A stretch of DNA of 20,000 bases from an uncultured virus (IMG/VR IMGVR_UViG_3300014914_000005) (taxonomy: Duplodnaviria; Heunggongvirae; Uroviricota; Caudoviricetes), in IMG/VR virus record IMGVR_UViG_3300014914_000005. One strand, given 5' to 3'. The position numbers and the translations under genes were made by a program. Shown in pieces: positions 4,225 to 19,574 of the stretch. Below the pieces are notes generated by a model, which worked only from the letters and a program-made list of their open reading frames with translations, did not search any database and had not been told where the DNA came from. Within the stretch, counting starts at the first letter, position 1. The number at the start of each line of letters is the position of its first letter.

Positions 4225-5187
4225 ATGGCGAATGTAAATGCTGCAGCGACCGTTTGGAATTGCCCTAACTATACAGGCGAGCTGTATCTTATCGGCGCAA
4301 ACAAGACGCCGTTTCTTAACATGATTGGTGGACTGCAAGGCGGACGAATCCGGACCGTTGGAGATTTTCAGTTTCCGCTGGCACAGCCCTGGGCTCTGGA
4401 GGCCGCTTCTCAGCCTGAAATTACAGAGACCGCTTCTCTCACCGCCCCAAACCCATGGACCTATGTACGTGATCAGGATGTTAATACTGTCCAGATTTTT
4501 CAGCGACAGGTAAGCGTATCTTACGCAAAACAGTCTGTCACAGGTCAAGTCACCGCTGATGCTACCACAGGCCTTGTCGACATTAACGACGGTCAGCCCG
4601 TACAGAATGAGAGGGACTTTCAAATCTCTGCTCATATGCGGCAAATTTCTGTCAATGTCGATTACACCTTTCTTAATGGTGCATACCAGCAAGCCACAGC
4701 GGCAAATGTCGCCGCAAAGAACCGCGGGATTATTACCGCCTGCACAACCAATACCGTGAACGCCGCTGCCGCTGCCTTGTCTAAGGCTTTGGTGGACCAG
4801 TTGCTCCGGACCATGGCCTCTAATGGCGCTGAGTTTGTCAACCCGGTCATCTTCTGCAATGCTTTCCAAAAACAGAAGCTGAGTGATATTTACGGGTATG
4901 CGCCCCAAGACAGAAATGTCGGTGGTTACAATATCAAACAGATCGAAACGGACTTCGCCGTCCTTGGTATTGTATGGGCTCCCAATGTCCCAGCTGCTAC
5001 TCTGTTGATCGCCGATCTGGCGTTCTGTTCCCCAGTGTTCCTGGCGGTCCCGGAAAAAGGTGTTCTGTTCTATGAAGAGCTTGCCAAGACCGGAGCCAGT
5101 GAAAAGGGCCAGATTTACGGACAGATTGGATTGGATTATGGACCGGAGGAGTACCACGGAACCATCACCAGTCTGGCCACCTCCTAG
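4225..5187 (+). CDS. Major capsid protein (HK97 fold, DUF5309/SU10-like)
   Basis: 320 aa; TPFLNMIGGL, N.VQIFQ..VSVSY, FLNG.YQ, GQIYGQIGLDYGPE motifs; position after scaffold; RBS GGAGG. Confidence 0.9.
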   Translation: MANVNAAATVWNCPNYTGELYLIGANKTPFLNMIGGLQGGRIRTVGDFQFPLAQPWALEAASQPEITETASLTAPNPWTYVRDQDVNTVQIFQRQVSVSYAKQSVTGQVTADATTGLVDINDGQPVQNERDFQISAHMRQISVNVDYTFLNGAYQQATAANVAAKNRGIITACTTNTVNAAAAALSKALVDQLLRTMASNGAEFVNPVIFCNAFQKQKLSDIYGYAPQDRNVGGYNIKQIETDFAVLGIVWAPNVPAATLLIADLAFCSPVFLAVPEKGVLFYEELAKTGASEKGQIYGQIGLDYGPEEYHGTITSLATS

Positions 5188-5210
5188 TCATTGCTCTAGG
5201 TAGTAATGGC
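5187..5210 (+). terminator. Hairpin after capsid stop (possible weak terminator or mRNA-stabilising stem)
   Basis: GTCATTGCT-CTAGGT-AGTAATGGC, 9-bp stem with two G-U pairs; the T tract is not directly adjacent. Confidence 0.4.
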
Positions 5211-5242
5211 ATTCACATTTTGAAGAAAGGAGGATTCTGATT

Positions 5243-5407
5243 ATGGCTTTCAGGTATAACAAAGAAGACGTAAAAAACTTTGTGGAGAAGAACCCGGCCG
5301 TCCCTCCGAAAATGAGGGAATATTTTTCCTATGTCAACAATAACCTGTTGACATGGCCGACCACGACCACCACCACCACAACCACCACCACAACCACAAC
5401 CGCTTAA
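5243..5407 (+). CDS. Small 54-aa protein with C-terminal 14-Thr tail (MAFRYNKEDVKNFVEKNPAVPPKMREYFSYVNNNLLTWP-T14-A); candidate capsid decoration protein
   Basis: Absent from the ORF track, which shows nothing below 60 aa; strong RBS AAAGGAGG upstream, ATG 5243, TAA 5405-5407; fills the gap between capsid and next gene. Confidence 0.85.
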   Translation: MAFRYNKEDVKNFVEKNPAVPPKMREYFSYVNNNLLTWPTTTTTTTTTTTTTTA

Positions 5408-5452
5408 TAGTTTATTAAACCGAGTTGTGAAGTTGAATAGGAGGACGTTGTA

Positions 5453-5917
5453 ATGACAGAAGGACGAAAAAGAAAGTTTTATAGAGCTAACTTGCCCACG
5501 GTTGTTTGGGATGCTGGAAATGATAGAGCACTTGCCGAATTTGTCAATGGTCAGTTTGTTACAAGGGATCAAGACGTCGCCAAGAAGCTTTTGGGTTTGG
5601 GATATGTAGAGGTTGATATTAGTGCCGATGCACCGCCTCCGCTGCCTGACCCACCCATTCAACCGGCTGCAAGTCCGGATGTCCCACTGGCTGGCGCTTA
5701 TGCAAAGGAGCAAGCCGGTTCTGCTGAAGACGATGAGGATGAGAAAGAAGTAAAACCGGAGACCGAAGAGACGTTCACTGGTACTGATTCTCCGGAGACG
5801 CCTGAAGCAAAAGAAAAGAAACCGGCTAAGAAAAAAGCTTCTACGAAAAAGAAGTCAACCAAGTCGACGGCATCCAAAAAAGCTGCTTCCCGTTCTCTAA
5901 AGGGACGAGCAAAATAA
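5453..5917 (+). CDS. Small head-region protein with Pro-rich, acidic and Lys/Ala-rich (histone H1-like) low-complexity C-terminus
   Basis: RBS AGGAGG; compact N-terminal domain (AEFVNGQFVT.D....KLL.LGY) followed by low-complexity segments. Confidence 0.8.
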   Translation: MTEGRKRKFYRANLPTVVWDAGNDRALAEFVNGQFVTRDQDVAKKLLGLGYVEVDISADAPPPLPDPPIQPAASPDVPLAGAYAKEQAGSAEDDEDEKEVKPETEETFTGTDSPETPEAKEKKPAKKKASTKKKSTKSTASKKAASRSLKGRAK

Positions 5918-5929
5918 AAAGGGTGTGTC

Positions 5930-6370
5930 ATGGCGAATTATTCTACCGATCCGGATTTAGTGAAAATCCGTCCTAATATCCTTGAGCTTGGTGTCGCCTC
6001 TTGGAATACACAGCATACAGAAGCCAAAGCCCAGATCGACAGGATTTTGGAGTCTCGCTGGTATAATGAGGTGGCCGCAGAACATAGCATAAACTTCCGG
6101 TCTACACCATTTGATGCTGATAAGTGCGACGCGGCGCAACTGGTAAGAGTGGCATGTTACAAGACACTTGAATTGGCGTATTTGTTTTTAATGAAGGATT
6201 CGCCTGAACCGGATGGCTATGAAAGGGAAATGAAGCTCTTTGGTAAAATGTACAAAGAGGAGCTGAACCTTATTCTGTCTCTTGGAGTGAATTACGATTG
6301 GGACGATAGCGATACCATTGAGGATGACGAACGTTTGTTGCCTCGGTACCGCAGAACGCAGAGGGTATGA
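5930..6370 (+). CDS. Head-tail connector/adaptor protein
   Basis: 146 aa starting MANYSTDPDL, predicted helical; standard position after head genes. Confidence 0.7.
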   Translation: MANYSTDPDLVKIRPNILELGVASWNTQHTEAKAQIDRILESRWYNEVAAEHSINFRSTPFDADKCDAAQLVRVACYKTLELAYLFLMKDSPEPDGYEREMKLFGKMYKEELNLILSLGVNYDWDDSDTIEDDERLLPRYRRTQRV

Positions 6371-6822
6371 TGGCCGAACCGTTATTTGTAAACGTCGGGC
6401 CTGTTAGGCGGACACTCAGGGATATTGCGGATGGCTTAGATACTGCAGAAAGCCTATTTGCTGAGATTGGTGCATTTGTTAAGTCTCAAATTGATATCCG
6501 CACTGCCATGGGTGTTGACAAAAACGAGCGGCCATTTACGCCGTATAGTGCGGCTTATGCCTTGTTTCGCGAAGAGTCCGGAAGGTCGACAACGCCAAAT
6601 TTGTTTTTTACTGGTTCCATGATGTCTGCAATGACGTATGAAGCAACCGCTCGGCAGGCAAGGATCTTTTTTATGAATACCACAGATCCCAGTGGAGTCG
6701 CTAATCCCTTAAAAGCTTATTACCTAAATGAGGACAGAAATTTTTTCGGAATGAGCGAAGGTGACGTTAACAAGATTGTTGAAATGACAGAAAGGTATAT
6801 CGGCCGTATAATAGGAGATTGA
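6367..6822 (+). CDS. Virion morphogenesis/neck (tail completion, Mu gpG/HK97 gp10-like) protein
   Basis: F.PYS..Y...R, NLFFTGSMM, RNFFGMS motifs; ATGA overlap with previous gene. Confidence 0.75.
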   Translation: MMAEPLFVNVGPVRRTLRDIADGLDTAESLFAEIGAFVKSQIDIRTAMGVDKNERPFTPYSAAYALFREESGRSTTPNLFFTGSMMSAMTYEATARQARIFFMNTTDPSGVANPLKAYYLNEDRNFFGMSEGDVNKIVEMTERYIGRIIGD

Positions 6823-6823
6823 C

Positions 6824-7276
6824 ATGGCTGCTAATAGCCTGCGAGAAAGAATATTGGTTCAACTGGTTTCAACTGTTAGTGATGTGGAGGCGATTAGCAC
6901 TGTCCGCAGAACGAAACAGTCTTATGCGAAGTTAAAAGAATTCGCGGTTACGCAGTTTCCAGTTGTCGCCATAGTTGGCAGGCTCCCGCAACCTCTGGAG
7001 CATATTAAAGGACGTGCTCCGGGAGGTGCCGATCTATTTGTTTCAGATCTACAAGTTGATTTCTTTGTTTACGGCATGGCCAATGAGGATGAAGATACTT
7101 TGGTCAGTAATTTGGCTGATGATTTATGGGCTGTGTTACATGCAGACCAAACAGTCAATAATCTGGCTATTAGCACTTCCTTAGTATTTACGGAAGATCC
7201 GCAGTATTGGCCTCCCTTTGTCGCCTTCAAATTAACTGCTACTATCAAATATAAACATCTAATAGGAGGGATTTAA
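6824..7276 (+). CDS. Tail terminator protein
   Basis: 150 aa, N-terminal SLRERIL pattern, FP motif; directly upstream of tail tube. Confidence 0.7.
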   Translation: MAANSLRERILVQLVSTVSDVEAISTVRRTKQSYAKLKEFAVTQFPVVAIVGRLPQPLEHIKGRAPGGADLFVSDLQVDFFVYGMANEDEDTLVSNLADDLWAVLHADQTVNNLAISTSLVFTEDPQYWPPFVAFKLTATIKYKHLIGGI

Positions 7277-7278
7277 TA

Positions 7279-7836
7279 ATGCCGACTCCCCCAAGCACAG
7301 AAAACTATGCGATTGGAAAAGGGAAGCTGTATATTGCTGAATGGTCCGGCGCGACACCTCCGGCAACTGTCGACACTGCAATCGGTAATTGTACCAGCAT
7401 TGAAGTTGAGCCGACTGTCGAGCGCCTTGCACATTACAGTTCCCAAGCTGGTTTTCGAACAAAAGATAAAAACCCAATCATCCAAACTGAATATACAATC
7501 AATTTTGACTGCGACGAAATCGCCGCCACGAACCTTGCCATTTTTCTTATGGGCACTGTTAGCGGTAATATTGTCTCGGCCTTGCAAGGTACCAACAAGG
7601 AGTATGCGCTCAAGTTTGTGAGCGACAATCCCATCGGCCCCAACCAGACATGGGAGTTCTGGAAGGTTACGTTAACGCCGAACGGTGCATTGCAATTAAT
7701 TGGTGATGAGTGGATGGTGATGAGCTTTGCCGGTGAGGGTTTATCTGATGTCGCGAACCATGCATCAAGCCCGTACTTTACAGTTACGGAGGCAACTACT
7801 ACAACCACAACTACTACCACAACAACGACTGTATAG
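7279..7836 (+). CDS. Major tail tube protein with C-terminal T12-V tail
   Basis: NYAIGKGKLYI, IGNC, HYSS..G.R.KD, DEI...NLA.FL.G motifs; upstream of chaperone and tape measure; no sheath gene in the module (non-contractile tail). Confidence 0.85.
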   Translation: MPTPPSTENYAIGKGKLYIAEWSGATPPATVDTAIGNCTSIEVEPTVERLAHYSSQAGFRTKDKNPIIQTEYTINFDCDEIAATNLAIFLMGTVSGNIVSALQGTNKEYALKFVSDNPIGPNQTWEFWKVTLTPNGALQLIGDEWMVMSFAGEGLSDVANHASSPYFTVTEATTTTTTTTTTTTV

Positions 7837-7878
7837 TCGTAAAAGGTAATATTTCGTACGCAGCGAACGGAGGTTATT

Positions 7879-8259
7879 ATGGCGCGTAAAACGGAGACCT
7901 TTAAAATCGAGGGATATGATAAGAGCTTTACAGTTACCGAATTAACTGTGAAGCAAATTATCGGCCTCGTGCAAGACGATGTCCAAACGGCAGGTGATGA
8001 CTTTGATGCGTTACGTTCCATCTTCGCAGACAAAGTCCTCCCGCTTGCCTCAAATGTTACTATGGAAGATCTAGTAGAAATGGCTCCCAGCGATATCAAA
8101 GAGTTTTGGGATCATTTCTACAAAGTGAATTCCGTTTTTTTCGAGATGGCCCGCAAGTCCGGTCTGAAGGCAGTGCTGGAGACGTTACAAACAGCGATCC
8201 TTTCGGACTTTGGAAAGTGGCTTGCGGGCTCATTGAGGCCGGACATAAAGACGTCTTAG
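7879..8259 (+). CDS. Tail assembly chaperone (lambda gpG-like)
   Basis: 126 aa between tail tube and tape measure; ELTVKQI and VN..FF motifs; RBS GGAGG. Confidence 0.8.
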   Translation: MARKTETFKIEGYDKSFTVTELTVKQIIGLVQDDVQTAGDDFDALRSIFADKVLPLASNVTMEDLVEMAPSDIKEFWDHFYKVNSVFFEMARKSGLKAVLETLQTAILSDFGKWLAGSLRPDIKTS

Positions 8260-8405
8260 ATTATGGGTATTCGTTCTTTGTCGCTGCGTTAAATGAGCAC
8301 CAGAAGTTGAAGTTTGAGCGCCAAAAAGAATTAGCTGTTGCTGTGCGAATGGCGCAGCATGCAGACGGAAAGCAATGGCGTCAATACTTAAAACGAAAGG
8401 GCTAG
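8211..8405 (+). CDS. Tail assembly chaperone T segment (-1 frame), probably expressed as a G-T frameshift fusion
   Basis: Open -1 frame overlapping G (LIEAGHKDVLDYGYSFF...), no obvious own RBS/start, ends 3 nt before tape measure ATG. Start coordinate is the proposed slip site. Confidence 0.7.
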   Translation, partial: WKVACGLIEAGHKDVLDYGYSFFVAALNEHQKLKFERQKELAVAVRMAQHADGKQWRQYLKRKG

Positions 8406-8408
8406 AAT

Positions 8409-11018
8409 ATGCCAGACCGCAGCGATACATTCGAAATTCTTGTCCGCCTTAAAAACCTTGCCAAAGGTGGTTTGAAAGATGTCGATGACAGTTTAGAAAA
8501 AGTAGATCGACAGGCTAAGAAAACAAACAAAACTCTTGTTACACTCCGCAACGGCCTTTCTGGTATAGGTAAAGCCGCCTTCTCTCTTAAAGGCGCCTTT
8601 GTTGGTTTGGGCGTCGGCCTCATTGCAAAATCTTTTGTCGACGCTGCAAGCACCGCAGAACAATTCCGCACCCGTCTTGTTACCTTAACAGGTAGCGTTC
8701 AGGAAGCCAATAAACTATTCGAAGACATGAGCGAGTTTGCGTCCGGCGTCTCTTTTAGTTATGAAGAGATAATGGCCAGCGCTACAAACTTGACTGCTGT
8801 AATGAAAGGCGGTACGGCAGAGGTCCAACAGTATATGCCTTTGATTGCGGACCTTGCCGCGGCTTCCGGTTTAACAATTGAAGAAACAACCGGACAGGTT
8901 ATTAGAATGTACAGTGCCGGTGCGGCCGCTGCGGATATGTTTAGGGAACGTGGTGTTCTCGCAATGCTTGGTTTTCAGGCTGGTGTTTCTTACTCGGCAG
9001 AAGAAACAAAAGAAATGTTGATAGCGGCGTGGGAAGACCCAGCGTCTAAATTCCGTGATGCGTCTCAGGCATTGGCCACGACATGGGAAGGTATGTTGTC
9101 GATGATGGGTGACGCTTGGTTTCAATTCCGTACTATGGTATTTGAAGCCGGTGTATTTGATTACATGAAAGCCGCTCTCAGTCTTGTACTAGATTACATT
9201 AAACAAATAAAGTCCGGTGGCGATTTTGCTGATGTTGGTAAGAGTATTGCTGAACATATTATTTGGGGAATGGAGAAGGCTGCGCAAGCAGCGGCCCTTG
9301 TTGTAGATGCTTGGCGTGGTTGGAAATTAATATGGTTAACATTAAAGGCCGGCTTTACAACATTAATGTCGTTGATATACGACGGTATTAATAGTCTAAT
9401 TGGATTTCTCGATGATGTCCAAATCAAGATTGGCCAAGTGGCTCAAACTGCCGGTACTATGGTCAAAAATGCCGGTAGGTATTTAGGCGAAGATGTTAGA
9501 GACGCTGGCGAGGCATTGCAACAGCTCGGAACCGATATGGAACAATCGGCAAGAGCCAGCTCAGAAGGTCTACAAATAGCCGCTGATACTTGGGAGGAAA
9601 TGAAGAACGAAGCGAACTCTACATTGGTCTCCTATGCATTACAAGAATCGGCATTGACTAAAGTTAACAAAGTTCTTGGGCTTGTTAAGGAACGAGCTGA
9701 AGGATATGCCAAGGCCGCAAAAGAAGCCGCAGCTCAACCAGCGCCTGAAAGACCTGCAGCCGCTGCTCCCGCTGCATCGTTTGAAAAAGAGCTGGAGAGC
9801 GACTTAAGCAGAATGAAGGCCCATACCTCTACAACCATGGCGTTCTTGCAAGACGCTTACGATCAAGGCCTTGTGGGACTGGAAGATTACTTTGCCCAGA
9901 GGGAAACCAAACTTGTCGAAAGCTTTGAATTAGAAAAACGGGTATTGGAACAAAAGGCATTACTTGAAGAAAGCCCGGATAAGAAGCTAGCGGCCCAAGA
10001 TAAAATCTATGCTTTAGAGCAACAGCACCAAAGGGACTTGTTACAATTAACCATTGATCGACGTACAGCTGAAGAAGCAGAAGAACAAAGTATTTTGGAC
10101 GCCAAGGTGTTAATGGCCGATTTGAAAGTTCGCAGTGCTGAAGATGCTAGAGCCAAGACCCAGGCGCTTTTTGAACAAGAATTCTTAGATCTACAAACTA
10201 AACATATCAACGAGATTGCCGAGCTTGAAAATCTAAATGCAACCACGGCTATGATTAATGATGCTCATAGAGCACAGGAGCTTGAAAAGGAAAAGCTATA
10301 TGCAGACCAGAAAGCCCGCATAATGGAAATGACGTTTTCCGGTGTACAGCAAACACTGGGCTTTATGGAACAGGCTTTTGGGGACATGTACCAAGTAGCC
10401 GGTGAGGAGGCAAAGGAATTCTTCTATGCCCAAAAGGCGGTCCAGATTGCACAAACCATTATGTCGACTTATTCAACCGCTCAGAAGGCTTATGAGTCCC
10501 TTGCAAGCATACCATATGTTGGACAGGCTCTAGGTATTGCTGCAGCGGCCGCTGCTATTGCTTCCGGTTTGGCTAGAGTTAATATGATTAGAAGTCAGAA
10601 GCTAGCCGGTGGTGGTGAGGTCGCCGGCCATTCACCAACAGAGACAAGTGACAATGTACCTATCTGGGCCACGGCTGGAGAATTCGTACAAAGAAAATCA
10701 GCGGTCAGGCATTACGGAGTTGGTGTAATGGAGGCTCTTAATAAACGGTTAATTCCAAAAAGCCTGTTCAGCGGTTTCTCTTTACCTCACGTATTGCCTC
10801 ACCGCTCCATGGCATATCAAACCGGTGGCGCTGTAACACCTGCAAAGATCGACAGGCAGATGGAAAAACAACAGGAACCCATTAATGTCGTCAATGTTGT
10901 AGACCCGCAAATGTTTGATGAGTATTTGGCTTCTACAACTGGCGAACGTACATTGCTCAATGTAATGTCACGCAATCAGTATCAAGTCCAAAGAGTTTTA
11001 GGATTGGGAGGTGTTTAA
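8409..11018 (+). CDS. Tape measure protein
   Basis: 869 aa, Ala-rich and helical; tape-measure N-terminal domain (RLVTLTGS...A..LF.....FA); C-terminal GGG.V.G....SDNVPIWATAGEFV motif. About 125-130 nm tail by the usual ~0.15 nm/residue rule. Confidence 0.93.
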   Translation: MPDRSDTFEILVRLKNLAKGGLKDVDDSLEKVDRQAKKTNKTLVTLRNGLSGIGKAAFSLKGAFVGLGVGLIAKSFVDAASTAEQFRTRLVTLTGSVQEANKLFEDMSEFASGVSFSYEEIMASATNLTAVMKGGTAEVQQYMPLIADLAAASGLTIEETTGQVIRMYSAGAAAADMFRERGVLAMLGFQAGVSYSAEETKEMLIAAWEDPASKFRDASQALATTWEGMLSMMGDAWFQFRTMVFEAGVFDYMKAALSLVLDYIKQIKSGGDFADVGKSIAEHIIWGMEKAAQAAALVVDAWRGWKLIWLTLKAGFTTLMSLIYDGINSLIGFLDDVQIKIGQVAQTAGTMVKNAGRYLGEDVRDAGEALQQLGTDMEQSARASSEGLQIAADTWEEMKNEANSTLVSYALQESALTKVNKVLGLVKERAEGYAKAAKEAAAQPAPERPAAAAPAASFEKELESDLSRMKAHTSTTMAFLQDAYDQGLVGLEDYFAQRETKLVESFELEKRVLEQKALLEESPDKKLAAQDKIYALEQQHQRDLLQLTIDRRTAEEAEEQSILDAKVLMADLKVRSAEDARAKTQALFEQEFLDLQTKHINEIAELENLNATTAMINDAHRAQELEKEKLYADQKARIMEMTFSGVQQTLGFMEQAFGDMYQVAGEEAKEFFYAQKAVQIAQTIMSTYSTAQKAYESLASIPYVGQALGIAAAAAAIASGLARVNMIRSQKLAGGGEVAGHSPTETSDNVPIWATAGEFVQRKSAVRHYGVGVMEALNKRLIPKSLFSGFSLPHVLPHRSMAYQTGGAVTPAKIDRQMEKQQEPINVVNVVDPQMFDEYLASTTGERTLLNVMSRNQYQVQRVLGLGGV

Positions 11019-12040
11019 TGCATTACGTTAGCGGAACCACGACAGATTTTCATGATATTGTTGATGCCATGGTTAACCTAATGACTTCGGCATTGGGAGG
11101 CGGGTGGACAGTTATAATGTCTCGCAATACCCGTGATAACGCAGCTAATTATGGTGCATCCGTAGAAGAACCGGATATGGCTTCTACATGTACTGAAATG
11201 ATTTTAAAGAGTACAGGATACGGTGGAGCAGATAACTTTTACATTGGAATCCGTGAATGGGACAGAGATGATTATGCTACTCCGTTATCCGGTTTTGACT
11301 TAGCCGTATTAAATCATTTTGTTCTAGCGCCTCCCACTATATGGAATTATTTATATGGTACAATGACGGGAGCGATTAATACTTACAATAACACTTATAA
11401 TCGCTTTTCAAGTCACCCAGGCTTCTGCACTACCCAAGGTGTTAACATGGACTATTGGATTTCCTCTAGTCCCCAAAGAGTAATGGCCGTTGTGAAAATC
11501 CTGTCTAATTATGAAAGCTTTTATGTTGGTGCTGGTGACAGGTTTGGTAATCCATCTGATTATCCATGCCCAATGTTTGCATGCTCTACAAGTCAAGGAA
11601 TAAATGCTCCAGACGAGGCTTTGGCAACCCGCGCCAAGTTTGTACCAGCCGGAGGGAGTGTAGCGCATGTTATTACTCCCGGGAATTACATGTTGACAGC
11701 TGGTAACATATTGACACTTCCATATGAGCAAATGCAGAATGTGACAAGTTATGAACTTCAAAGTTTAAATAACGATAGAAGGCTTTGTATGCCTGTCTTG
11801 CTTGTAAATGCTTCTACGAATCCTCATGAATTGTTAATGGAGCTTGAAGGTGTTTACCAAATATTCGGACAGTTGATTAGTAGCGAGGATGAAATAAGTA
11901 TTGACGGGAGCCGTCATTTAGTATTTCAAAATCTACATGAAACAGATTATTACCAATATATGGCGTTTCCAATTGCCACGTCGACAACCACGACTACAAC
12001 AACCAGTACCACAACAACCACAACGACAACCACTGTATAA
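11018..12040 (+). CDS. Tail-tip virion structural protein (YuA/phiJL001-like) with C-terminal Thr-rich tail
   Basis: M.Y.SGT..D..D start, GGGW, ELEGVY...G...SED.I.IDG..HLVFQN end, then TS-T7-S-T9-V; TAATG coupling to tape measure. Confidence 0.7.
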   Translation: MHYVSGTTTDFHDIVDAMVNLMTSALGGGWTVIMSRNTRDNAANYGASVEEPDMASTCTEMILKSTGYGGADNFYIGIREWDRDDYATPLSGFDLAVLNHFVLAPPTIWNYLYGTMTGAINTYNNTYNRFSSHPGFCTTQGVNMDYWISSSPQRVMAVVKILSNYESFYVGAGDRFGNPSDYPCPMFACSTSQGINAPDEALATRAKFVPAGGSVAHVITPGNYMLTAGNILTLPYEQMQNVTSYELQSLNNDRRLCMPVLLVNASTNPHELLMELEGVYQIFGQLISSEDEISIDGSRHLVFQNLHETDYYQYMAFPIATSTTTTTTTSTTTTTTTTTV

Positions 12041-12052
12041 GGGAGTTAAACA

Positions 12053-13006
12053 ATGACCAGTGTAAACACTTATACCTCGTACACGCCAGCAACCTGTCAC
12101 CTTGCATTAACAAGGATCAGAGAGTTTTTAATTGCTAATGGTTGGACGGAAGAAGAATATGTGTCCGGTATGGAATGGCTGTCTGATGGCGATGGTACGT
12201 ATTCTTGGCAGCTTGGAGGCGATGCAGAAACGTTTTTGGATATGTCCAGTCAAGGTTATAACGGACTCGGCAACCAAGATATGCGTTACAGATTCTGGGT
12301 GACGGCTTCTGGTGCTGACCCGTTAGCGGAATATTTATATGTTTCGTTGGTCGACCCTACCGATCCAGAAGTTGATGAGAATGTTTCTACGACTCCGGTA
12401 TTACAAAAGTATGTGACCTACCTTCGTATAGGCATTCCTACTGGAACCGGATTGACTATACATGCATTCGATTTAAATACCGGCTTCCCGACCTTTGCAA
12501 CTTTCATATTACAATTGACAGATTATTTCAATGTATTGTTTGCGATCGGGTGTCCTGATTTGTTTGTTACTACAGATGAAGTTTGGGGAATATGGGGAGC
12601 AAGTACCGCACTGGCTTATTATACTATCACAGGCCATAATCTACAAACACGCCAGCCTCTTGCTAAATGGAATAATTATAGAGGCGGAAATACTGGTGTA
12701 TGGCAGTCAAACCATTATTGCGGTGGGACTTACGGATGGAGCGCAACCAATTATGGTTTTATCGCGCCTTACGGAGGTGCGGTACAATTAAACGCTTATG
12801 CCGGTAGACGTTCTTTTATCAAACCGATTTATTTTTGTACAGACGATAACGACCAGCTCTGGCCGGTAGGCTCTTATCCATGGTATTACTGTAGATGGCC
12901 CGGGCTCGATCTTGGTGAAACAATAACTTATGGTGGACAACAATATGTGGTATTCCCGGATGGGTTTACCAGTAAAGATTATGGAATTGGAATGCGGATA
13001 GCCTAA
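12053..13006 (+). CDS. Second tail-tip virion structural protein, likely distant paralog of the preceding gene
   Basis: FLIANGW near N-terminus, GETITYGGQQYVVFP near C-terminus, paralleling the previous ORF. Confidence 0.65.
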   Translation: MTSVNTYTSYTPATCHLALTRIREFLIANGWTEEEYVSGMEWLSDGDGTYSWQLGGDAETFLDMSSQGYNGLGNQDMRYRFWVTASGADPLAEYLYVSLVDPTDPEVDENVSTTPVLQKYVTYLRIGIPTGTGLTIHAFDLNTGFPTFATFILQLTDYFNVLFAIGCPDLFVTTDEVWGIWGASTALAYYTITGHNLQTRQPLAKWNNYRGGNTGVWQSNHYCGGTYGWSATNYGFIAPYGGAVQLNAYAGRRSFIKPIYFCTDDNDQLWPVGSYPWYYCRWPGLDLGETITYGGQQYVVFPDGFTSKDYGIGMRIA

Positions 13007-14175
13007 TGTCTACAACTACGACAACTACAACTTCAACAACAACCACCACGTCGATCACGTGGTTTACAACTACCACTACAGAGCCGCCTCTGCAAGGTCA
13101 CGTTTATGGCTCAATGGATGTAGACGCTATATTTATTTCATCGGTAGATTGGGACGTCGGAACATATAAAGATGCACACCCACCAACGGCCATGGTTTTT
13201 GGAGAAGGCGGTACTCCGGAGCGAGAAGGAATTGTAACTACTTTTCATCCTCCAATTGTACATGTCAACGATTCACAAGGCCATAATCCATATGCGCAGG
13301 AATGGAATTTCGGTGTTATCTTTGATCCGTATTTTATTGATTGCGGTTTTATTGTATGGGATGTCGATTATACCATTTCTGTTTGGAACCAATGGAAAAC
13401 GAAAAGTGTTGATATCACGGATATTGTAATCAGTGGCGCAGCTGGTATTTCGTTAGATAAGTCAGCTCCGATAACTGTTCCACCTTATGGTCAAGAGCTA
13501 TTTACATTGACTGTTCATGGCGATGGCCCGCCATTCCAATCTTCCACGATTACATTTACAATTGATGGACAAGATTACGTTTGTTCAATTACTGGTTTGC
13601 GGGTGCTTCCAATGCCCATGGCCTGTAATTGGGAACAGCGGTATAGAATAGGCTATACGTTTAGAACCATATTACAAAGCAACCGCAAGTTTCACGAACA
13701 GCGACGGCCCACTTGGGATAAACCGAAACGGGATGTGGCCTATTCAGTATGGGAACAAGGTGTTAATATACAGTATGCCCGCAATCTTATAAAATACGGC
13801 CATGATAAATTCTTTATGGTACCTCTGTTTAATGAGCCAATATTTTCAGACCGGGTACATGGCTTAACAGGTTTTGATCATGTGACAGCGGATGCCTCGT
13901 TGGATATCGACCATTATTATAATCTACAAAATTTATGCGATTTTGTAATGATTATTGATCATGCAAGTTTGGCCACTGAAATAAAAGAAATTGATTCTAT
14001 TGTTGGAAACATAATAACATTTACAGAACTTGTAACTGGTTCTTTCAGTGAAGACTCGGCCATGATTTATCCGGCTTTTGTGGCTACAATAGATGGTGCC
14101 ATATATACATCTGAAACAGACGACTTGGATGAAATCGACCTTAAATTTGTGGAGTATATAAAAAGTGACAGATAG
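13006..14175 (+). CDS. Tail protein: N-terminal Thr tract, Ig-like beta-rich region and distal-tail (Dit)-like region
   Basis: MS-T7-S-T5-SITWF-T5 start; VWN...GI.L..P..VPP....L.V..DGPP segment; W...Y..GY.F.T......EQRR motif. Confidence 0.65.
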   Translation: MSTTTTTTTSTTTTTSITWFTTTTTEPPLQGHVYGSMDVDAIFISSVDWDVGTYKDAHPPTAMVFGEGGTPEREGIVTTFHPPIVHVNDSQGHNPYAQEWNFGVIFDPYFIDCGFIVWDVDYTISVWNQWKTKSVDITDIVISGAAGISLDKSAPITVPPYGQELFTLTVHGDGPPFQSSTITFTIDGQDYVCSITGLRVLPMPMACNWEQRYRIGYTFRTILQSNRKFHEQRRPTWDKPKRDVAYSVWEQGVNIQYARNLIKYGHDKFFMVPLFNEPIFSDRVHGLTGFDHVTADASLDIDHYYNLQNLCDFVMIIDHASLATEIKEIDSIVGNIITFTELVTGSFSEDSAMIYPAFVATIDGAIYTSETDDLDEIDLKFVEYIKSDR

Positions 14176-14791
14176 CCTTGAAGACTTAGGAACGATTGAT
14201 GTAATGACATGGGTATGGAATTGGAGTCCTGTTCCGCGTGTAGAGTTTTTGTTTAGCCGGACGCTTCGGGACTTTGGTTCTACTGCGCAAGAGGTAGTGA
14301 GCGAAACGGATTACAACCCATTTCAGGGACAGTATGAATTCCTAATTTCTGATAAAGAAACAGAGTATGACTTTCTCGAATTCTTTTTAGGCAAACGTGG
14401 CAGAACCCAAAAGTTTTGGTGTAAGAGCCCTCATCAAACATTTACATTAAAATCCAATGTTGGCGCGGGTTCGTCTTTGCTTTATGTAGAAGATAACAGA
14501 GCCGATTATATTTGGCAAGGCCATGAACGTATCTGGATCAAGCTTGCCAATGGAGACGAGATAACAAGACAAGTGAGCAATGTTGTCCGGGATACGGATT
14601 TGGACCGTATTGAATTACATTTAGAAACGTTGATTACGACAGGATTTGATATTGAAGATGTTGTATTTTTTGGTCGCATTTATCTTGTGCGATGCGACTT
14701 GGATAAATACCAAGTAAGTTATGAATCCGATAAGGTTTGTACTGTAACAATAAAAGTGTATGAGACTGTGAGAGAATACGATGACATATGA
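14165..14791 (+). CDS. Distal tail (Dit/DUF2460-like) protein
   Basis: GTG start with GGAG at 14151-14154; EFF...RGR...FW motif; precedes hub gene. Confidence 0.6.
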   Translation: MTDSLEDLGTIDVMTWVWNWSPVPRVEFLFSRTLRDFGSTAQEVVSETDYNPFQGQYEFLISDKETEYDFLEFFLGKRGRTQKFWCKSPHQTFTLKSNVGAGSSLLYVEDNRADYIWQGHERIWIKLANGDEITRQVSNVVRDTDLDRIELHLETLITTGFDIEDVVFFGRIYLVRCDLDKYQVSYESDKVCTVTIKVYETVREYDDI

Positions 14792-15626
14792 TACCAATTT
14801 AACAGAACACCAGATGGATGGATTACCTGAACTGTACAGGATTTCTTTTGGTAACAGTATTGAATATTTTACGTCTTGGCCTGAATCCCTTACATTTGGT
14901 GGACAACTATATAAAGCGGCTCCCATTAAACGTTCTGGTTTTAATCTCGACAGTCAATATAAAAATGTTACTATGACAATCAGCGCGCCGCCAACAGAAG
15001 CATTTGCTCAATACTTGGCAGGCTCTCCCGCTGGTGTAACAGAGATTATAATATACAGAGCACTAGAAACGGATTTGACGGATTACAAAGTTTTATTTAG
15101 TGGCAATATCAAATCGATTTCTTTTAAAGACCATTTGTGTTCAGCAGAAGTCGTTTCGAATAGTAATATATTGGATAACCCAATTCCGCCATACCTTTAT
15201 CAGAGTTATTGTAACCATACAATCTTTGATGCCGGGTGTTCGTTATCTGCATCGACTTGGTCACAGAATCTTGGTGGTATTGTTCTGGGTGAAGATGCGA
15301 ATGGTTATTATGCGGAACATGCTTATTTCGGCACTGGCTTTTATTCAGATGGTTACTTTACACAAGGTGTAATTGCAAGTGTCGACGGAGAGTTTGTGAG
15401 GTTGATTACATACCATGACCGCGCAAACGGTAAATGTTATTTACACGTTCCATTTGGATCAGATGAATTGGAGTCTGGTGATAATGCTTATGCATATCCC
15501 GGATGTGATGGTTCGCCCGGAGTTTGTGATAGTAAGTTTAGCAATCTACTTCATTTTCTTGGCATGCCTTATATTCCAAGTAACAACCCGGTCATTTGGG
15601 GTTTCTGTCAACCGAAGCCGGTATAA
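14781..15626 (+). CDS. Baseplate hub protein, DUF2163/phage BR0599 family (lambda gpL-like, probable Fe-S)
   Basis: Four conserved Cys in YCNHTIFDAGC and GCDGSPGVC; C-terminal KF.N..HFLG.PYIP..NP signature. Confidence 0.88.
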   Translation: MTYDTNLTEHQMDGLPELYRISFGNSIEYFTSWPESLTFGGQLYKAAPIKRSGFNLDSQYKNVTMTISAPPTEAFAQYLAGSPAGVTEIIIYRALETDLTDYKVLFSGNIKSISFKDHLCSAEVVSNSNILDNPIPPYLYQSYCNHTIFDAGCSLSASTWSQNLGGIVLGEDANGYYAEHAYFGTGFYSDGYFTQGVIASVDGEFVRLITYHDRANGKCYLHVPFGSDELESGDNAYAYPGCDGSPGVCDSKFSNLLHFLGMPYIPSNNPVIWGFCQPKPV

Positions 15627-15628
15627 TT

Positions 15629-16129
15629 ATGGAAAGCATATTTGTAGACAATAAAAAGTATAAGGAATTTGAAACGGCGCTTGTGTCATGGCTTGGAACG
15701 CCATATAAACACTTTACTATGGTAAAAGGCCGCGGAGCCGATTGTGCTTTGTTTGTTATGGCCTGTTACAAAGAAGCAGGCGTATTGTCCCATGTTAATA
15801 CTGATGATTATTACCCAAAGGATTGGTGGAGGCATGGTGGAGGAGAATTCATAAGAACACAGTTTGTACAGCATATGGATTTATATGCCTTGCAAGGTTA
15901 TACCTCTATCTGGATCGACAAGGGAGACGAAGACGAAATGTTACAAGGTGATTTAATTGGTTTCTCTTTGTCTAAGACTGGCATTACTCATCATTGCGGA
16001 ATACTACTGGCAAACAAAATTGAAATGATACATAGCATTAACCACCGAGGAGTTGTAAAGGTTCCCTATTCACCATGGTGGGAGCGTCACAGAACCGGTG
16101 TAATTCGTATTATTAAAGGAACTGACTAA
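15629..16129 (+). CDS. NlpC/P60 family tail-associated peptidase
   Basis: WLGTPYKH...GADC, HCGI and MIHS give Cys-His-His residues. ATG 15629 preferred over the track's TTG 15596. Confidence 0.88.
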   Translation: MESIFVDNKKYKEFETALVSWLGTPYKHFTMVKGRGADCALFVMACYKEAGVLSHVNTDDYYPKDWWRHGGGEFIRTQFVQHMDLYALQGYTSIWIDKGDEDEMLQGDLIGFSLSKTGITHHCGILLANKIEMIHSINHRGVVKVPYSPWWERHRTGVIRIIKGTD

Positions 16130-18399
16130 TGGGATATGAACTGGCAATTGCTTTAATCGTTGGAGTAGTATTATATGCGGTAGCGTATTTGTATTATGGC
16201 TCCGGTGGAGACATGGAGCAGGATAATGCTAGTCCGGCAACTTTAGATGAGTTCTCAGTTACACAAAGTAATGAAGGTTCTGCGATTCCTTTAATATATG
16301 GTCGTAAAAGAACTCGTGGGAATGTTTTGTGGTACGGTAATCTTATGACCGAAGCAGTATGGTCCGGTGGTGGTGGTAGTGATGACCCGGACCCGGTTAT
16401 TATTGGTTACAAATATTATTTAGATGTATGGCAATCCGTTTGTATTGGTCCCGCGACATTAGTTGCGTATTATGTAGACAATGATGATGACCTTGGAATT
16501 ACCAGTTCAGGTGAGACATGGAATGATGGAAGCACTTATTCGTTCCCAACCGAGCCGGGACAGTATGCCGCGCCGTTGTTTGGTACTGCGCATATTTTTT
16601 GGGAGCAATGGTTAGTTGGAGAAAACAGAACAAGGCTTCCGACCGTCCATTTTGTTGTAGAACATTACCCAACTGGTTCTGGCTTGAGTTATATTGAAGA
16701 AACAAACGGATGTAATCCGGCTGCTATAATATATGACTTGCTCATACGAGCACAAGCTACAAACGAAGATATAGACATAGCTTCTTTCCAAGCTGCCAAT
16801 ACGTACTGGCACAACGCCGGTTATGGCTTGAATATGTCGTTTAGCAGACAAGTCAGCTGCAGGGAAGCCATTGCTGCAGTGCTCAAACAGGTTGGCGGCG
16901 TGTTCTCTGTTACAAATGAAAATAAGTTTTATATCAAAGCGTTTGATCCGGATGAAGCAGCCGCCGCTACAATCGAAACAGAAAAGTTTTTGAATTTTGC
17001 TTTTGTGCGTAAAAGCTGGTCAGATACCTATAATGATTTTAGAGCCACCTTTGTCGATGCTTCTAATGATTACAGTAAAAGAACTGTCGCGGTTCGTAAT
17101 GTGGCGAACTTCTGGCTCACTGGAAAGAAGAAACAATTGAATGTCGATCTAAATGCTTTCCGGGATATTGACCAAGTCAGTCAGCGGTTATGGGAGGTAA
17201 TGAAGACACAGAGTTATCCATTTGCCGAGTTTGATTTTGCAACCAATTTAGAATTCTATAGTATTAATGTGGGCGATGTTGTTGAAATTGTAAATGATGA
17301 TTACGGTATTGTATCCGCTTATATACGTATAATGTCGAAAGACGTTAGTGAGTACGACCAGAACAGGGTTGGATTTAAAGGAAGCCAAATGGTCGAACGT
17401 GAGATGGATACTAATTATAGTGTGACAGGCGGTACGGAATGGGAGGAGCCGGACCAAACTATCACGCCAATTGTCAACCAGCAAGTTATCGAACTTCCGT
17501 TTATAAGCGGAGAGATTGGATATGGAGTTACTTATCTGTTACTTGCAGAAAGGCCGCATTCTTGGGAAACCTCTTTTGTGGTAATTAAAAGTTATAATGG
17601 TACAAACTACGAAACGCAACAGGTCGCACACCGCTGGGCTCAATATGGAACGCTTGATGAGGCCTATGTAGAAACGCCGGACATTGACGATGAAATAGGA
17701 ATACTGTATACGCCAAGCCGGGAGGACCCAAGTTTTGATAGTATATCACGAGCTGAATTATTTTCATTAAATAGACTGGCATATATAAACGGCGAGTTCT
17801 TTGGCTTTCAAACAGTTACACCAGAAGGTCCGTCAAGTATACGGTTAACCGGAGTTGTCAGACGTTTGTTTAATACTAATCAGGATTTTGCTACTCATGC
17901 TTCCGGTTCTACGATTTGGTTATTTGAATACCCAAGAAGTATTAATAATGTAATGATGTCAGAATTGGCTACAAGTTTTTATTTAAAGTTCTTACCATCG
18001 TTTGTTGGTGTTACTTTGGACGCTTCGGATGCTACGCAAATTTTAGTAACTGCCGCGACAGTTCTTAAACCATTTGCACCGACAAGAATTAAAGCGGTAC
18101 GAACTGGAACAAGCGTTGCAATTGAGTGGTGGCCGGCAACTCAAATATCACAAGGCGCAGGAGCAGTCGCAGCAGATGGACAAGTAGATCAATACCCGTT
18201 TGCTTTTAATGGTCAATTCCAATGGTGGGATTCTATTTCAGGTACTTACCCGGCCGACGCTGTAACATCGACAACTATTGTTCGGGCCGGATCATTTACA
18301 TTTAGAGTTCGTATGCAAGACATCGCCAGTCGATTAAGTGATTGGGCTGAATTAACTATTGGCGCGGCTGATGGAACATATATAGGACCAGACGCTTAG
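16129..18399 (+). CDS. Central tail tip/host specificity protein (lambda J/GTA gp15-like)
   Basis: 756 aa; EGSAIPLIYGR.R..GNVLWYG, GYKYYL, NPAAIIYDLL, LTGVVRRLFNT motifs; follows NlpC/P60. Confidence 0.85.
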   Translation: MGYELAIALIVGVVLYAVAYLYYGSGGDMEQDNASPATLDEFSVTQSNEGSAIPLIYGRKRTRGNVLWYGNLMTEAVWSGGGGSDDPDPVIIGYKYYLDVWQSVCIGPATLVAYYVDNDDDLGITSSGETWNDGSTYSFPTEPGQYAAPLFGTAHIFWEQWLVGENRTRLPTVHFVVEHYPTGSGLSYIEETNGCNPAAIIYDLLIRAQATNEDIDIASFQAANTYWHNAGYGLNMSFSRQVSCREAIAAVLKQVGGVFSVTNENKFYIKAFDPDEAAAATIETEKFLNFAFVRKSWSDTYNDFRATFVDASNDYSKRTVAVRNVANFWLTGKKKQLNVDLNAFRDIDQVSQRLWEVMKTQSYPFAEFDFATNLEFYSINVGDVVEIVNDDYGIVSAYIRIMSKDVSEYDQNRVGFKGSQMVEREMDTNYSVTGGTEWEEPDQTITPIVNQQVIELPFISGEIGYGVTYLLLAERPHSWETSFVVIKSYNGTNYETQQVAHRWAQYGTLDEAYVETPDIDDEIGILYTPSREDPSFDSISRAELFSLNRLAYINGEFFGFQTVTPEGPSSIRLTGVVRRLFNTNQDFATHASGSTIWLFEYPRSINNVMMSELATSFYLKFLPSFVGVTLDASDATQILVTAATVLKPFAPTRIKAVRTGTSVAIEWWPATQISQGAGAVAADGQVDQYPFAFNGQFQWWDSISGTYPADAVTSTTIVRAGSFTFRVRMQDIASRLSDWAELTIGAADGTYIGPDA

Positions 18400-18407
18400 A
18401 GGAGATT

Positions 18408-19574
18408 ATGGCAAAACTAAGTCCAACTTTATTAGAGACCATAGATTTTGGAACCCAGGGATGGACCGAAATTCTGAATGATAATTTCCGCAAGCTTAAT
18501 GACAATCTCCTGTTTGTGGCTTCGATGCTTGATGTCAATTTTGGTACATTGGCCGATGATGATATTTTGGTATGGGACGCCGGTTCGCAAAAATGGATTA
18601 ATCTGCCTTATACAGATTTAGCCACCTCAACAACCACGACCACAACTACAACTTACACAACCACAACGTCAATTACATGGTTCACAACAACCAGCACGAC
18701 TACAACCACATCGACAAGTACGACAACTACGTCAGTTACATGGTTCACAACCACAACCACTACGTCGACAACCACCACGTCAACAAGCACAACCACATCG
18801 ACAAGTACGGTCACAACCACAACCACTACGTCGACAACCACCACGTCAACAAGCACAACCACATCGACAAGTACGGTCACAACCACAACCATTAATCCAT
18901 TAGATTACGATGTATTAATGATTCACAGTGATGATGCGGATGGCTCAACTACGTTTACAGACAGTTCAAGTTCTGGCCATACCATTACAAATAGCGCTTC
19001 GGTTGAACATAGTGAAGACGAACAATATTTTTGTAGATCATCGATTTACTATCCAAATAATACACAATGGTTGCAAGTGGCTGCGTCGGCTGATTTTAAT
19101 TTTGGAACCGGTGCATGGTGTATTGACTTCTTCCTTAAGATGGACGATTACGATGCCAACCAATATTTCTTTGATATTGTCACTGGCGTTAATGGCATGT
19201 ACCTCAGAACCAATGCCAAAATCATTGAGTTACGAGAAAGCAATATAGGTGCCGGTGTTTATCTAAGTTATACAGTGACAGAAGATACTGATTGGCACCA
19301 TCTAGCCGTGGAAGCAGACGGAGCCGGAAACCAATACATGTATTGGGATGGTACTATGGTTGATTCAGCCAGTGAATCCGGTTCTTGGGGCGGAACGGAG
19401 ATTTTCCATATTGGGGACGCTGGTAATCATGGAGCCTTCGGAATTAATAATGGTTATATAGATCACTTTAGAGTATTGAAAGGCGCGCGCCTTGGTAATG
19501 GCAGCGCATTTCCAGTTCCTACTGGGCCGATGGATTATACTTGTATGACAACGACAACTACGACGACGGTGTAA
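18408..19574 (+). CDS. Tail fibre/receptor-binding protein: anchor, 89-aa Thr/Ser stalk, LamG/ConA-like lectin domain, T7-V tail
   Basis: DGSTTFTDSS, FNFGTG.WCIDFF, WHHLAV, YWDG, NGYIDHFRVLKG.R motifs typical of phage LamG domains; RBS GAGGAG. Confidence 0.82.
   Translation: MAKLSPTLLETIDFGTQGWTEILNDNFRKLNDNLLFVASMLDVNFGTLADDDILVWDAGSQKWINLPYTDLATSTTTTTTTTYTTTTSITWFTTTSTTTTTSTSTTTTSVTWFTTTTTTSTTTTSTSTTTSTSTVTTTTTTSTTTTSTSTTTSTSTVTTTTINPLDYDVLMIHSDDADGSTTFTDSSSSGHTITNSASVEHSEDEQYFCRSSIYYPNNTQWLQVAASADFNFGTGAWCIDFFLKMDDYDANQYFFDIVTGVNGMYLRTNAKIIELRESNIGAGVYLSYTVTEDTDWHHLAVEADGAGNQYMYWDGTMVDSASESGSWGGTEIFHIGDAGNHGAFGINNGYIDHFRVLKGARLGNGSAFPVPTGPMDYTCMTTTTTTTV
18745..18891 (+). repeat. Perfect 66-bp tandem repeat (about 2.2 copies) within the Thr/Ser stalk
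   Basis: Unit TCACAACCACAACCACTACGTCGACAACCACCACGTCAACAAGCACAACCACATCGACAAGTACGG starts at 18745 and 18811, partial copy at 18877. Confidence 0.92.

Follow-up and report, generated by a model that had tools for sequence, protein, structure and literature searches.

Several virion proteins encoded by this uncultured siphovirus carry runs of threonine or serine, and what is conserved is the run itself rather than the valine or alanine that follows it in the four C-terminal tails. Sequence comparisons and structural models together suggest that the tails are probably acceptor tags for a phage-encoded mucin-type O-glycosylation that would coat the particle.

The analysed window, i.e. the whole 20-kb stretch of DNA (20,000 nucleotides; G+C 43.7%), is a virion module. 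It encodes a portal protein (189–1709; phrog_145), an SU10-type major capsid protein (4225–5187; PF17236, E 1e-61), a major tail (tube) protein of 185 aa (7279–7836, plus strand; phrog_807, E 3e-33), a tape measure protein (8409–11018), a set of tail-tip genes of the kind found in alphaproteobacterial phages and gene transfer agents (14781–18399; PF09931, PF09356, NlpC/P60, PF13550, PF23666) and a fibre of 388 aa (18408–19574, plus strand; phrog_24074 and phrog_701). The two open reading frames that follow the tube gene, 7879–8259 and the overlapping 8106–8405 in the −1 frame, resemble the usual tail assembly chaperone pair, and a T-TTT-TTC slippery heptamer lies in the correct register inside their overlap (8136–8142). 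Searched against cultured phages, region 4225–9000 gave no match by megablast, and every tblastn match of the tube protein was below 60% identity. The nearest record (G001) is an identical fragment of only 4.5 kb. A metagenome scan for long close relatives returned 15 loci (best 76% identity), nearly all on short contigs, and the downstream region of the window was not among them. A scan of species-representative genomes gave a single match, an 83-kb contig (L016) in a metagenome-assembled genome titled Desulfobacteraceae; no host can be named from this contig, and the C-terminal sequence of its tube protein is that of an 83-kb viral record (G010).

Four proteins of the window end in a threonine run, all on the plus strand. 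The first is a 54-aa protein directly after the major capsid gene (5243–5407), whose position suggests a capsid decoration protein; its residues 40–53 form T14, followed by alanine and the stop codon (GCT TAA; tail DNA 5360–5404). The tube protein ends in T12-V (tail 7795–7833), with T12 at 7795–7830 followed by GTA and TAG. A 340-aa protein directly after the tape measure gene (11018–12040; phrog_687, ‘structural protein’) ends in T7-S-T9-V (GTA TAA; tail DNA 11984–12037), and the fibre ends in T7-V (GTG TAA; 19548–19571). The four tails are therefore where the original prediction had placed them, with V, V, V and A ends encoded by GTA, GTA, GTG and GCT, although the ‘T9-V’ that it had assigned to the tail-tip protein is only the last part of a longer T7-S-T9-V tail. 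Its statement that the tailed proteins are non-homologous also held: in an all-against-all BLASTP comparison with SEG filtering against a six-protein database, the best match outside the tails had an E value of 0.089, and the proteins belong to different PHROGs. The protein at 11018–12040 and its neighbour at 12053–13006 both match phrog_687 without significant pairwise similarity, and only the first of them has a Thr tail.

Two further runs on the same strand had been overlooked. The 389-aa tail protein encoded at 13006–14175 (phrog_1082, ‘tail assembly protein’) starts with M-S-T7-S-T5-SITWF-T5 (13012–13080), and the fibre contains an internal Ser/Thr stalk of 89 residues (73–161; 18624–18890) with two S[IV]TWF interruptions, such that it consists of an N-terminal domain of ~70 aa, the stalk, a C-terminal globular part and the T7-V tail. 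A hydrophobic island containing tryptophan often stands just before or between the Thr runs: SITWF in the 389-aa tail protein (13051–13065), SITWF and SVTWF in the fibre (18669–18683 and 18732–18746) and LTWP ahead of the small protein's T14 (5348–5359), with VTWI, GWS, AWT and PWT as pre-tail counterparts in relatives. This island could be an anchor or a recognition element.

Because only ~3e-7 T7 tails are expected among the 21 open reading frames of the window (Thr frequency 7.7% outside the runs), a chance origin of the tails is excluded. All four Thr codons are mixed within the tracts and the longest run of an identical codon is 2–4; thus the tracts are not simple DNA repeats and are maintained at the protein level. 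Extension of the tube protein beyond its stop codon by readthrough or frameshifting was considered and rejected, as 42 bases of intergenic DNA follow and a second stop lies one codon later.

The tail of the tube protein was then scored by a fixed rule in the best 120 homologues (56–86% identity). A C-terminal Ser/Thr tail was found in 114 of them (93 Thr-type, 18 Ser-type, 3 mixed); the remaining six comprise two with short or interrupted Thr runs, three with Ser/Glu-rich tails and one without a tail (P0050). Among tube relatives in IMG/VR that retain an intact C-terminus, all 24 have a poly-T tail (42–100% identity). Thr and Ser are interchangeable in the tails of the homologues while other polar residues are absent, making the hydroxyl residues near-exclusive. 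One subgroup (P0007, P0014, P0029, P0033 and others) carries poly-Ser instead of poly-Thr, typically with one L/R interruption and an A or AA end; it is a clean natural exchange of Thr for Ser, from which acceptor preference could be learned.

These data bear on the proposal that the runs are functionless, being either low-complexity expansions generated by replication slippage or linkers left behind after loss of a C-terminal domain. Tail length does vary among the tube homologues (0–54 residues, median 14), and ACN repeats could grow by slippage. However, nearly all homologues keep the tail, even at 42% identity, the tracts of the window mix synonymous codons with none occurring more than four times in succession, the tract is always read as Thr/Ser, and it is confined to virion proteins. 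We consider a neutral origin very improbable.

The positions that carry tags are common to the relatives: the small protein after the capsid gene, the tube protein, the protein after the tape measure and the fibres. A homologue of the 5243–5407 protein in a 95-kb relative (G006; L067:7065–7217) has an NPAVPP-MR motif and a Ser/Thr tail, and small tailed proteins occupy the same position in L002 and L003. At the position of 11018–12040, the proteins of L003, L005 and G006 likewise end in Ser/Thr tails. G006 encodes eight tailed virion proteins in total, each ending in S or T, and its fibre (L068:1459–3729) has five Ser/Thr runs between domains in addition to a T16 tail.

The original prediction had read the C-terminal tails, each a Thr run plus a single small aliphatic residue, as a defined recognition motif for a modifying enzyme, binding partner or protease, and had itself made the terminal residue of homologues the test of this reading. 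The residue is unconserved. After the last S/T, the 120 tube homologues have no further residue in 47 cases, A in 25, V in 21 and AP in 11, with AA, GA and P found three times each and I, GPP, AAP, RFGQ, G, IP and PP once each; the closest distinct homologue (P0001, 86% identity) ends in T10 without a cap. The tube relatives in IMG/VR end in V, S, T, A, AA or E (E in L016 and L032), and the eight tails of G006 all lack a cap. Moreover, Thr tags occur at the N-terminus of the 389-aa tail protein and inside the fibre and so are not confined to C-termini. What speaks for the proposal is that all four tails of the window end in V or A, that 61 of the 73 caps present in the tube family start with A or V, and that these two residues lead a wider sample: an IMG/VR scan for T10-X-stop returned at least 129 stretches, of which 80 loci were examined; at least 34 of their tails belong to open frames 100 aa or more in length, and among the matches listed X was T in 16, V in 7, S in 5, A in 3, E in 2, L in 1 and P in 1, placing V and A at the head of the 13 residues other than S/T. 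Yet 6 of the 17 untailed open reading frames in the window also end in V or A, so that finding such an end on four of four tails is only mildly unusual (~0.015, i.e. 0.35^4). The homologue survey thus largely refutes the terminal motif, to which we now attach hardly any credence. Existing caps are biased to A, V or P, so the last residue is not random, but the protein can do without it. One possible source of the bias is mutational proximity, since Thr→Ala and Ala→Val are single transitions; another is avoidance of charge beside an acceptor site.

For the tube protein, an AlphaFold2 model (mean pLDDT 83.4) found its best PDB folds in the tail tube proteins of YSD1 and Chi (6xgr, E 3.9e-11; 8vhx, E 9e-11), with blocks within residues 171–185 reaching only 62 and 58. 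The window protein shares with this type (phrog_807) the tube-domain fold at ~34% identity, and in both the C-terminal appendage occupies an equivalent place in the chain. In FSL SP-030, a Chi-like phage, a Big_1 Ig-like domain (298–378) comes after the region that matches residues 9–172 of the window protein, whereas the window protein has a Thr tail of 13 residues and a Pfam search of its 185 aa found no Ig domain. The Ig-like domains of the YSD1 and Chi tube proteins face outward. With a Thr tail in place of the Ig-like appendage, the suggestion that the tail is displayed along the whole phage tail therefore gains indirect support.

The same observations can be read differently. The tails could be unmodified, disordered hydrophilic bristles or spacers that replace the Chi-type Ig-like domain and either keep particles from sticking to each other and to debris or act as weak adhesins, while the glycosyltransferase genes described below would serve the host surface or DNA. 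The low confidence of the modelled tail and its location at the Big_1 position of Chi-like tube proteins agree with such a role, but the near-exclusive use of hydroxyl residues and the Thr/Ser swap fit an acceptor better than a generic spacer. Considering also the enzyme data that follow, we regard unmodified bristles as unlikely.

No glycosyltransferase was detected within the 20-kb window by PHROG and Pfam searches, but related records encode a GT2-type enzyme, nine full-length copies of which are 40–48% identical and share the motifs MxxLSxIIPFxNE, FxDAH and IYGGGENF. Because the Pfam model PF00535 under-detects this enzyme (it misses G016), a dedicated profile (A2) was used instead. With it, the gene was found in 11 of the 15 records carrying the tailed tube protein, including every one of the seven with a completeness of 74% or more; the other four records are fragments, complete to no more than 58%. 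The outgroup G018, with a distant and tail-less tube protein, had no match to the profile. In all 11 records the gene is on the strand of the tube gene, and in ten it lies 17–31 kb downstream of it; in the eleventh (G004) it is upstream in the linear record, which we infer to be circularly permuted, and this would place it 14 kb downstream. The window ends 12 kb past the tube gene, so the enzyme gene would fall outside it. By extrapolation from relatives with 42–71% tube-protein identity, the phage studied here would be expected to carry the enzyme as well.

The gene lies in a cassette. Behind the eight tailed proteins of G006 come a weak GT4 match, a GT9–methyltransferase fusion, a methyltransferase, a weak sulfotransferase match, the GT2 enzyme and a conserved 142-aa protein (cassette in L067/L068); G003 contains GT1, GT2, two methyltransferases, an unknown protein and the GT2 enzyme of the A2-profile family (cassette in L009/L012). 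From this content in relatives, the presumed glycan may be methylated or sulfated. The GT2 gene is flanked by two conserved proteins of unknown family, of ~260–300 aa upstream and ~130–150 aa downstream. Directly after it in G004, on the opposite strand, is a 328-aa TIR-domain protein (L010:2273–3259, minus strand; PF13676, E 2.7e-6), and an unrelated 269-aa open reading frame occupies this position in G003. The placement of the glycosyltransferase cassette downstream of the tailed genes and on the same strand argues against a bristle that is never modified and is consistent with the tails being its substrate.

Polypeptide GalNAc-transferases (ppGalNAc-Ts) start mucin-type glycosylation in animals. 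When the GT2 profile was compared with the sequences of solved structures, the best match was ppGalNAc-T10 (E 6.7e-7), and ppGalNAc-Ts made up 9 of the 19 matches. An AlphaFold2 model built from 56 sequences (mean pLDDT 93.3) was searched against the PDB with Foldseek, and among the matches listed ranks 1–49 were all ppGalNAc-Ts, their sources being human, mouse, fly and Toxoplasma (lowest E 9e-16, TMq 0.59–0.69, ~14% identity). Residues D137 and H139 (DxH), G242-G243-E244 and H269 are invariant in the 56 sequences. The DxH aligns to the DSH of ppGalNAc-T10 (2d7i) and PGANT9, H269 aligns to the GH of PGANT9 (6e4q/6e4r), and IYGGGENF, with its invariant G-G-E, aligns to IWGGE/IWGGEN, the Gal/GalNAc-T motif (WGGENxE...) being kept only in part. 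The phage enzyme thus resembles the ppGalNAc-Ts of animals and protists (CAZy GT27; 2d7i, 2ffu, 6h0b, 6s24) in its GT-A catalytic fold and in having the DxH metal motif, a GGxEN-type motif and a later conserved His. The substrates of ppGalNAc-Ts, Thr/Ser-rich mucin repeats, are likewise similar to the phage Thr/Ser tags. It differs in being only ~14% identical, in its length (320–360 aa in this comparison) and in being cytoplasmic: Pfam finds Glycos_transf_2 alone in the GT2 proteins, with neither a ricin-type lectin domain nor an N-terminal membrane anchor, and these proteins (305–358 aa) start directly at the first strand (MxxLSxIIPF). We therefore describe the enzyme as GT27-like in predicted fold and motifs rather than as a member of GT27. 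That its nearest solved relatives all glycosylate polypeptides is a further point against unmodified bristles, and the existence of a conserved polypeptide-GalNAc-transferase-like enzyme in the relatives lends indirect support to the one part of the original recognition proposal that concerned a modifying enzyme.

The enzyme family is not restricted to this lineage. It was found at 71 loci in IMG/VR, and 34 of the 42 enzyme-family records searched (13 of 17 among those with a completeness of 90% or more) encode no tube protein of the tailed lineage. T8 runs were present in 12 of 16 tested enzyme-positive records lacking this tube protein and in none of the three controls negative for the enzyme (G018, a Chi-like Salmonella phage and Tunturi_4), which form a small control set, and the co-occurrence of enzyme and tail is partly phylogenetic and inflated by relatedness. 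One of the four enzyme-positive records without T8 (G065) carries tails of mixed Ser/Thr composition close to that gene. Of the 71 loci, 24 have at least one tail by the fixed rule no more than 10 kb from the enzyme gene, giving 33 tails; six of these look spurious (small open reading frames that overlap the enzyme gene or lie on the minus strand), and the remainder are, with one exception, upstream and co-oriented. A 277-kb jumbo phage record with direct terminal repeats (G076) also carries the family and has 78 overlapping matches to the T8 pattern, 77 inside its first 27 kb and one at ~240.7 kb.

The converse does not hold throughout. Of 19 unrelated records chosen by the T10-X-stop pattern, none had the GT2 family. 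Three of the T10-X-stop records with tails in real open reading frames (G022, G023 and G025) contain another PF00535 gene, and G024, a complete genome with a real tail, has no PF00535 match. Poly-Thr tails therefore exist without the GT2 family, and tailed phages without the enzyme, such as G024, are what one would expect if the tails were bristles only. Against 50,697 phage records, tblastn with the GT2 enzyme gave one match, in Tunturibacter phage Tunturi_4 (24.5% identity), where a distant glycosyltransferase lies between terminase and portal and Ser/Thr tails are absent.

Returning to the tails as glycosylation acceptors, the following sequence of events is proposed. The Thr/Ser runs would serve as portable O-glycosylation acceptor tags at the termini of surface-exposed particle proteins and as linkers inside fibres. 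Late in infection, the soluble cytoplasmic GT-A glycosyltransferase of the phage would add the first sugar to Thr/Ser hydroxyls, after which the products of the neighbouring genes (glycosyltransferases, methyltransferases and a sulfotransferase-like protein) would elongate the glycan and decorate it. Tail tube, tail tip and fibres, and probably the head, would in this way acquire a mucin-like brush, with the last residue (V, A, AP or none) being a tolerated uncharged end position and not a signal. In this scheme the enzyme presumably acts on the tails and the coat presumably has a role. A broader statement, in our judgement evenly poised between right and wrong, is that tailed phages of several unrelated lineages possess a self-contained eukaryote-like mucin-type system, in which a small soluble ppGalNAc-T relative and a portable Thr/Ser tag, placed at either end of or inside exposed virion proteins, would produce a particle-wide glycocalyx (head decoration, tube, tip and fibres), A/V/AP ends tuning acceptor quality.

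In mycobacteriophages, the sugars are reportedly carried by the C-terminal parts of capsid and tube subunits. Glycosylation of phage virions is already known from mycobacteriophages, and the system described here would be a variant with another enzyme family and homopolymeric tags. According to two open-access articles (PMC12363180; PMC12582341), mycobacteriophages attach sugars to proteins of their capsid and tail tube by means of their own glycosyltransferases, which shields the particles from antibodies, and virion O-glycosylation in Che8, Corndog and Myrna is credited there to Freeman et al. (2023, Cell Host Microbe). The likeness is that phage-encoded glycosyltransferases modify capsid and tube subunits and give the particle a sugar coat, which in the present case is a proposal. 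The differences are that the enzyme belongs to another family (tblastn with the GT2 enzyme matched no mycobacteriophage, and thus no homology to Che8 gp110 or Corndog gp38 was found) and that homopolymeric Thr/Ser runs are present here on many proteins, tip and fibres included. In the open-access literature searched, no description of poly-Thr or Thr-rich tags on phage virions was found; a threonine-rich match in PMC9973310 concerns a host S-layer protein and not a phage virion tag.

Should the tails prove to be glycosylated, the coating of particles with sugars would be more than a curiosity of a few mycobacteriophages: a modular pairing of tag and enzyme would extend across environmental phages, and an enzyme type regarded as eukaryotic would be in use by phages. 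Such a coat would be relevant to the way in which phages escape aggregation, adsorption to debris, proteases or recognition by the host, and the run itself would offer a short, genetically encodable tag for protein glycosylation in bacteria.
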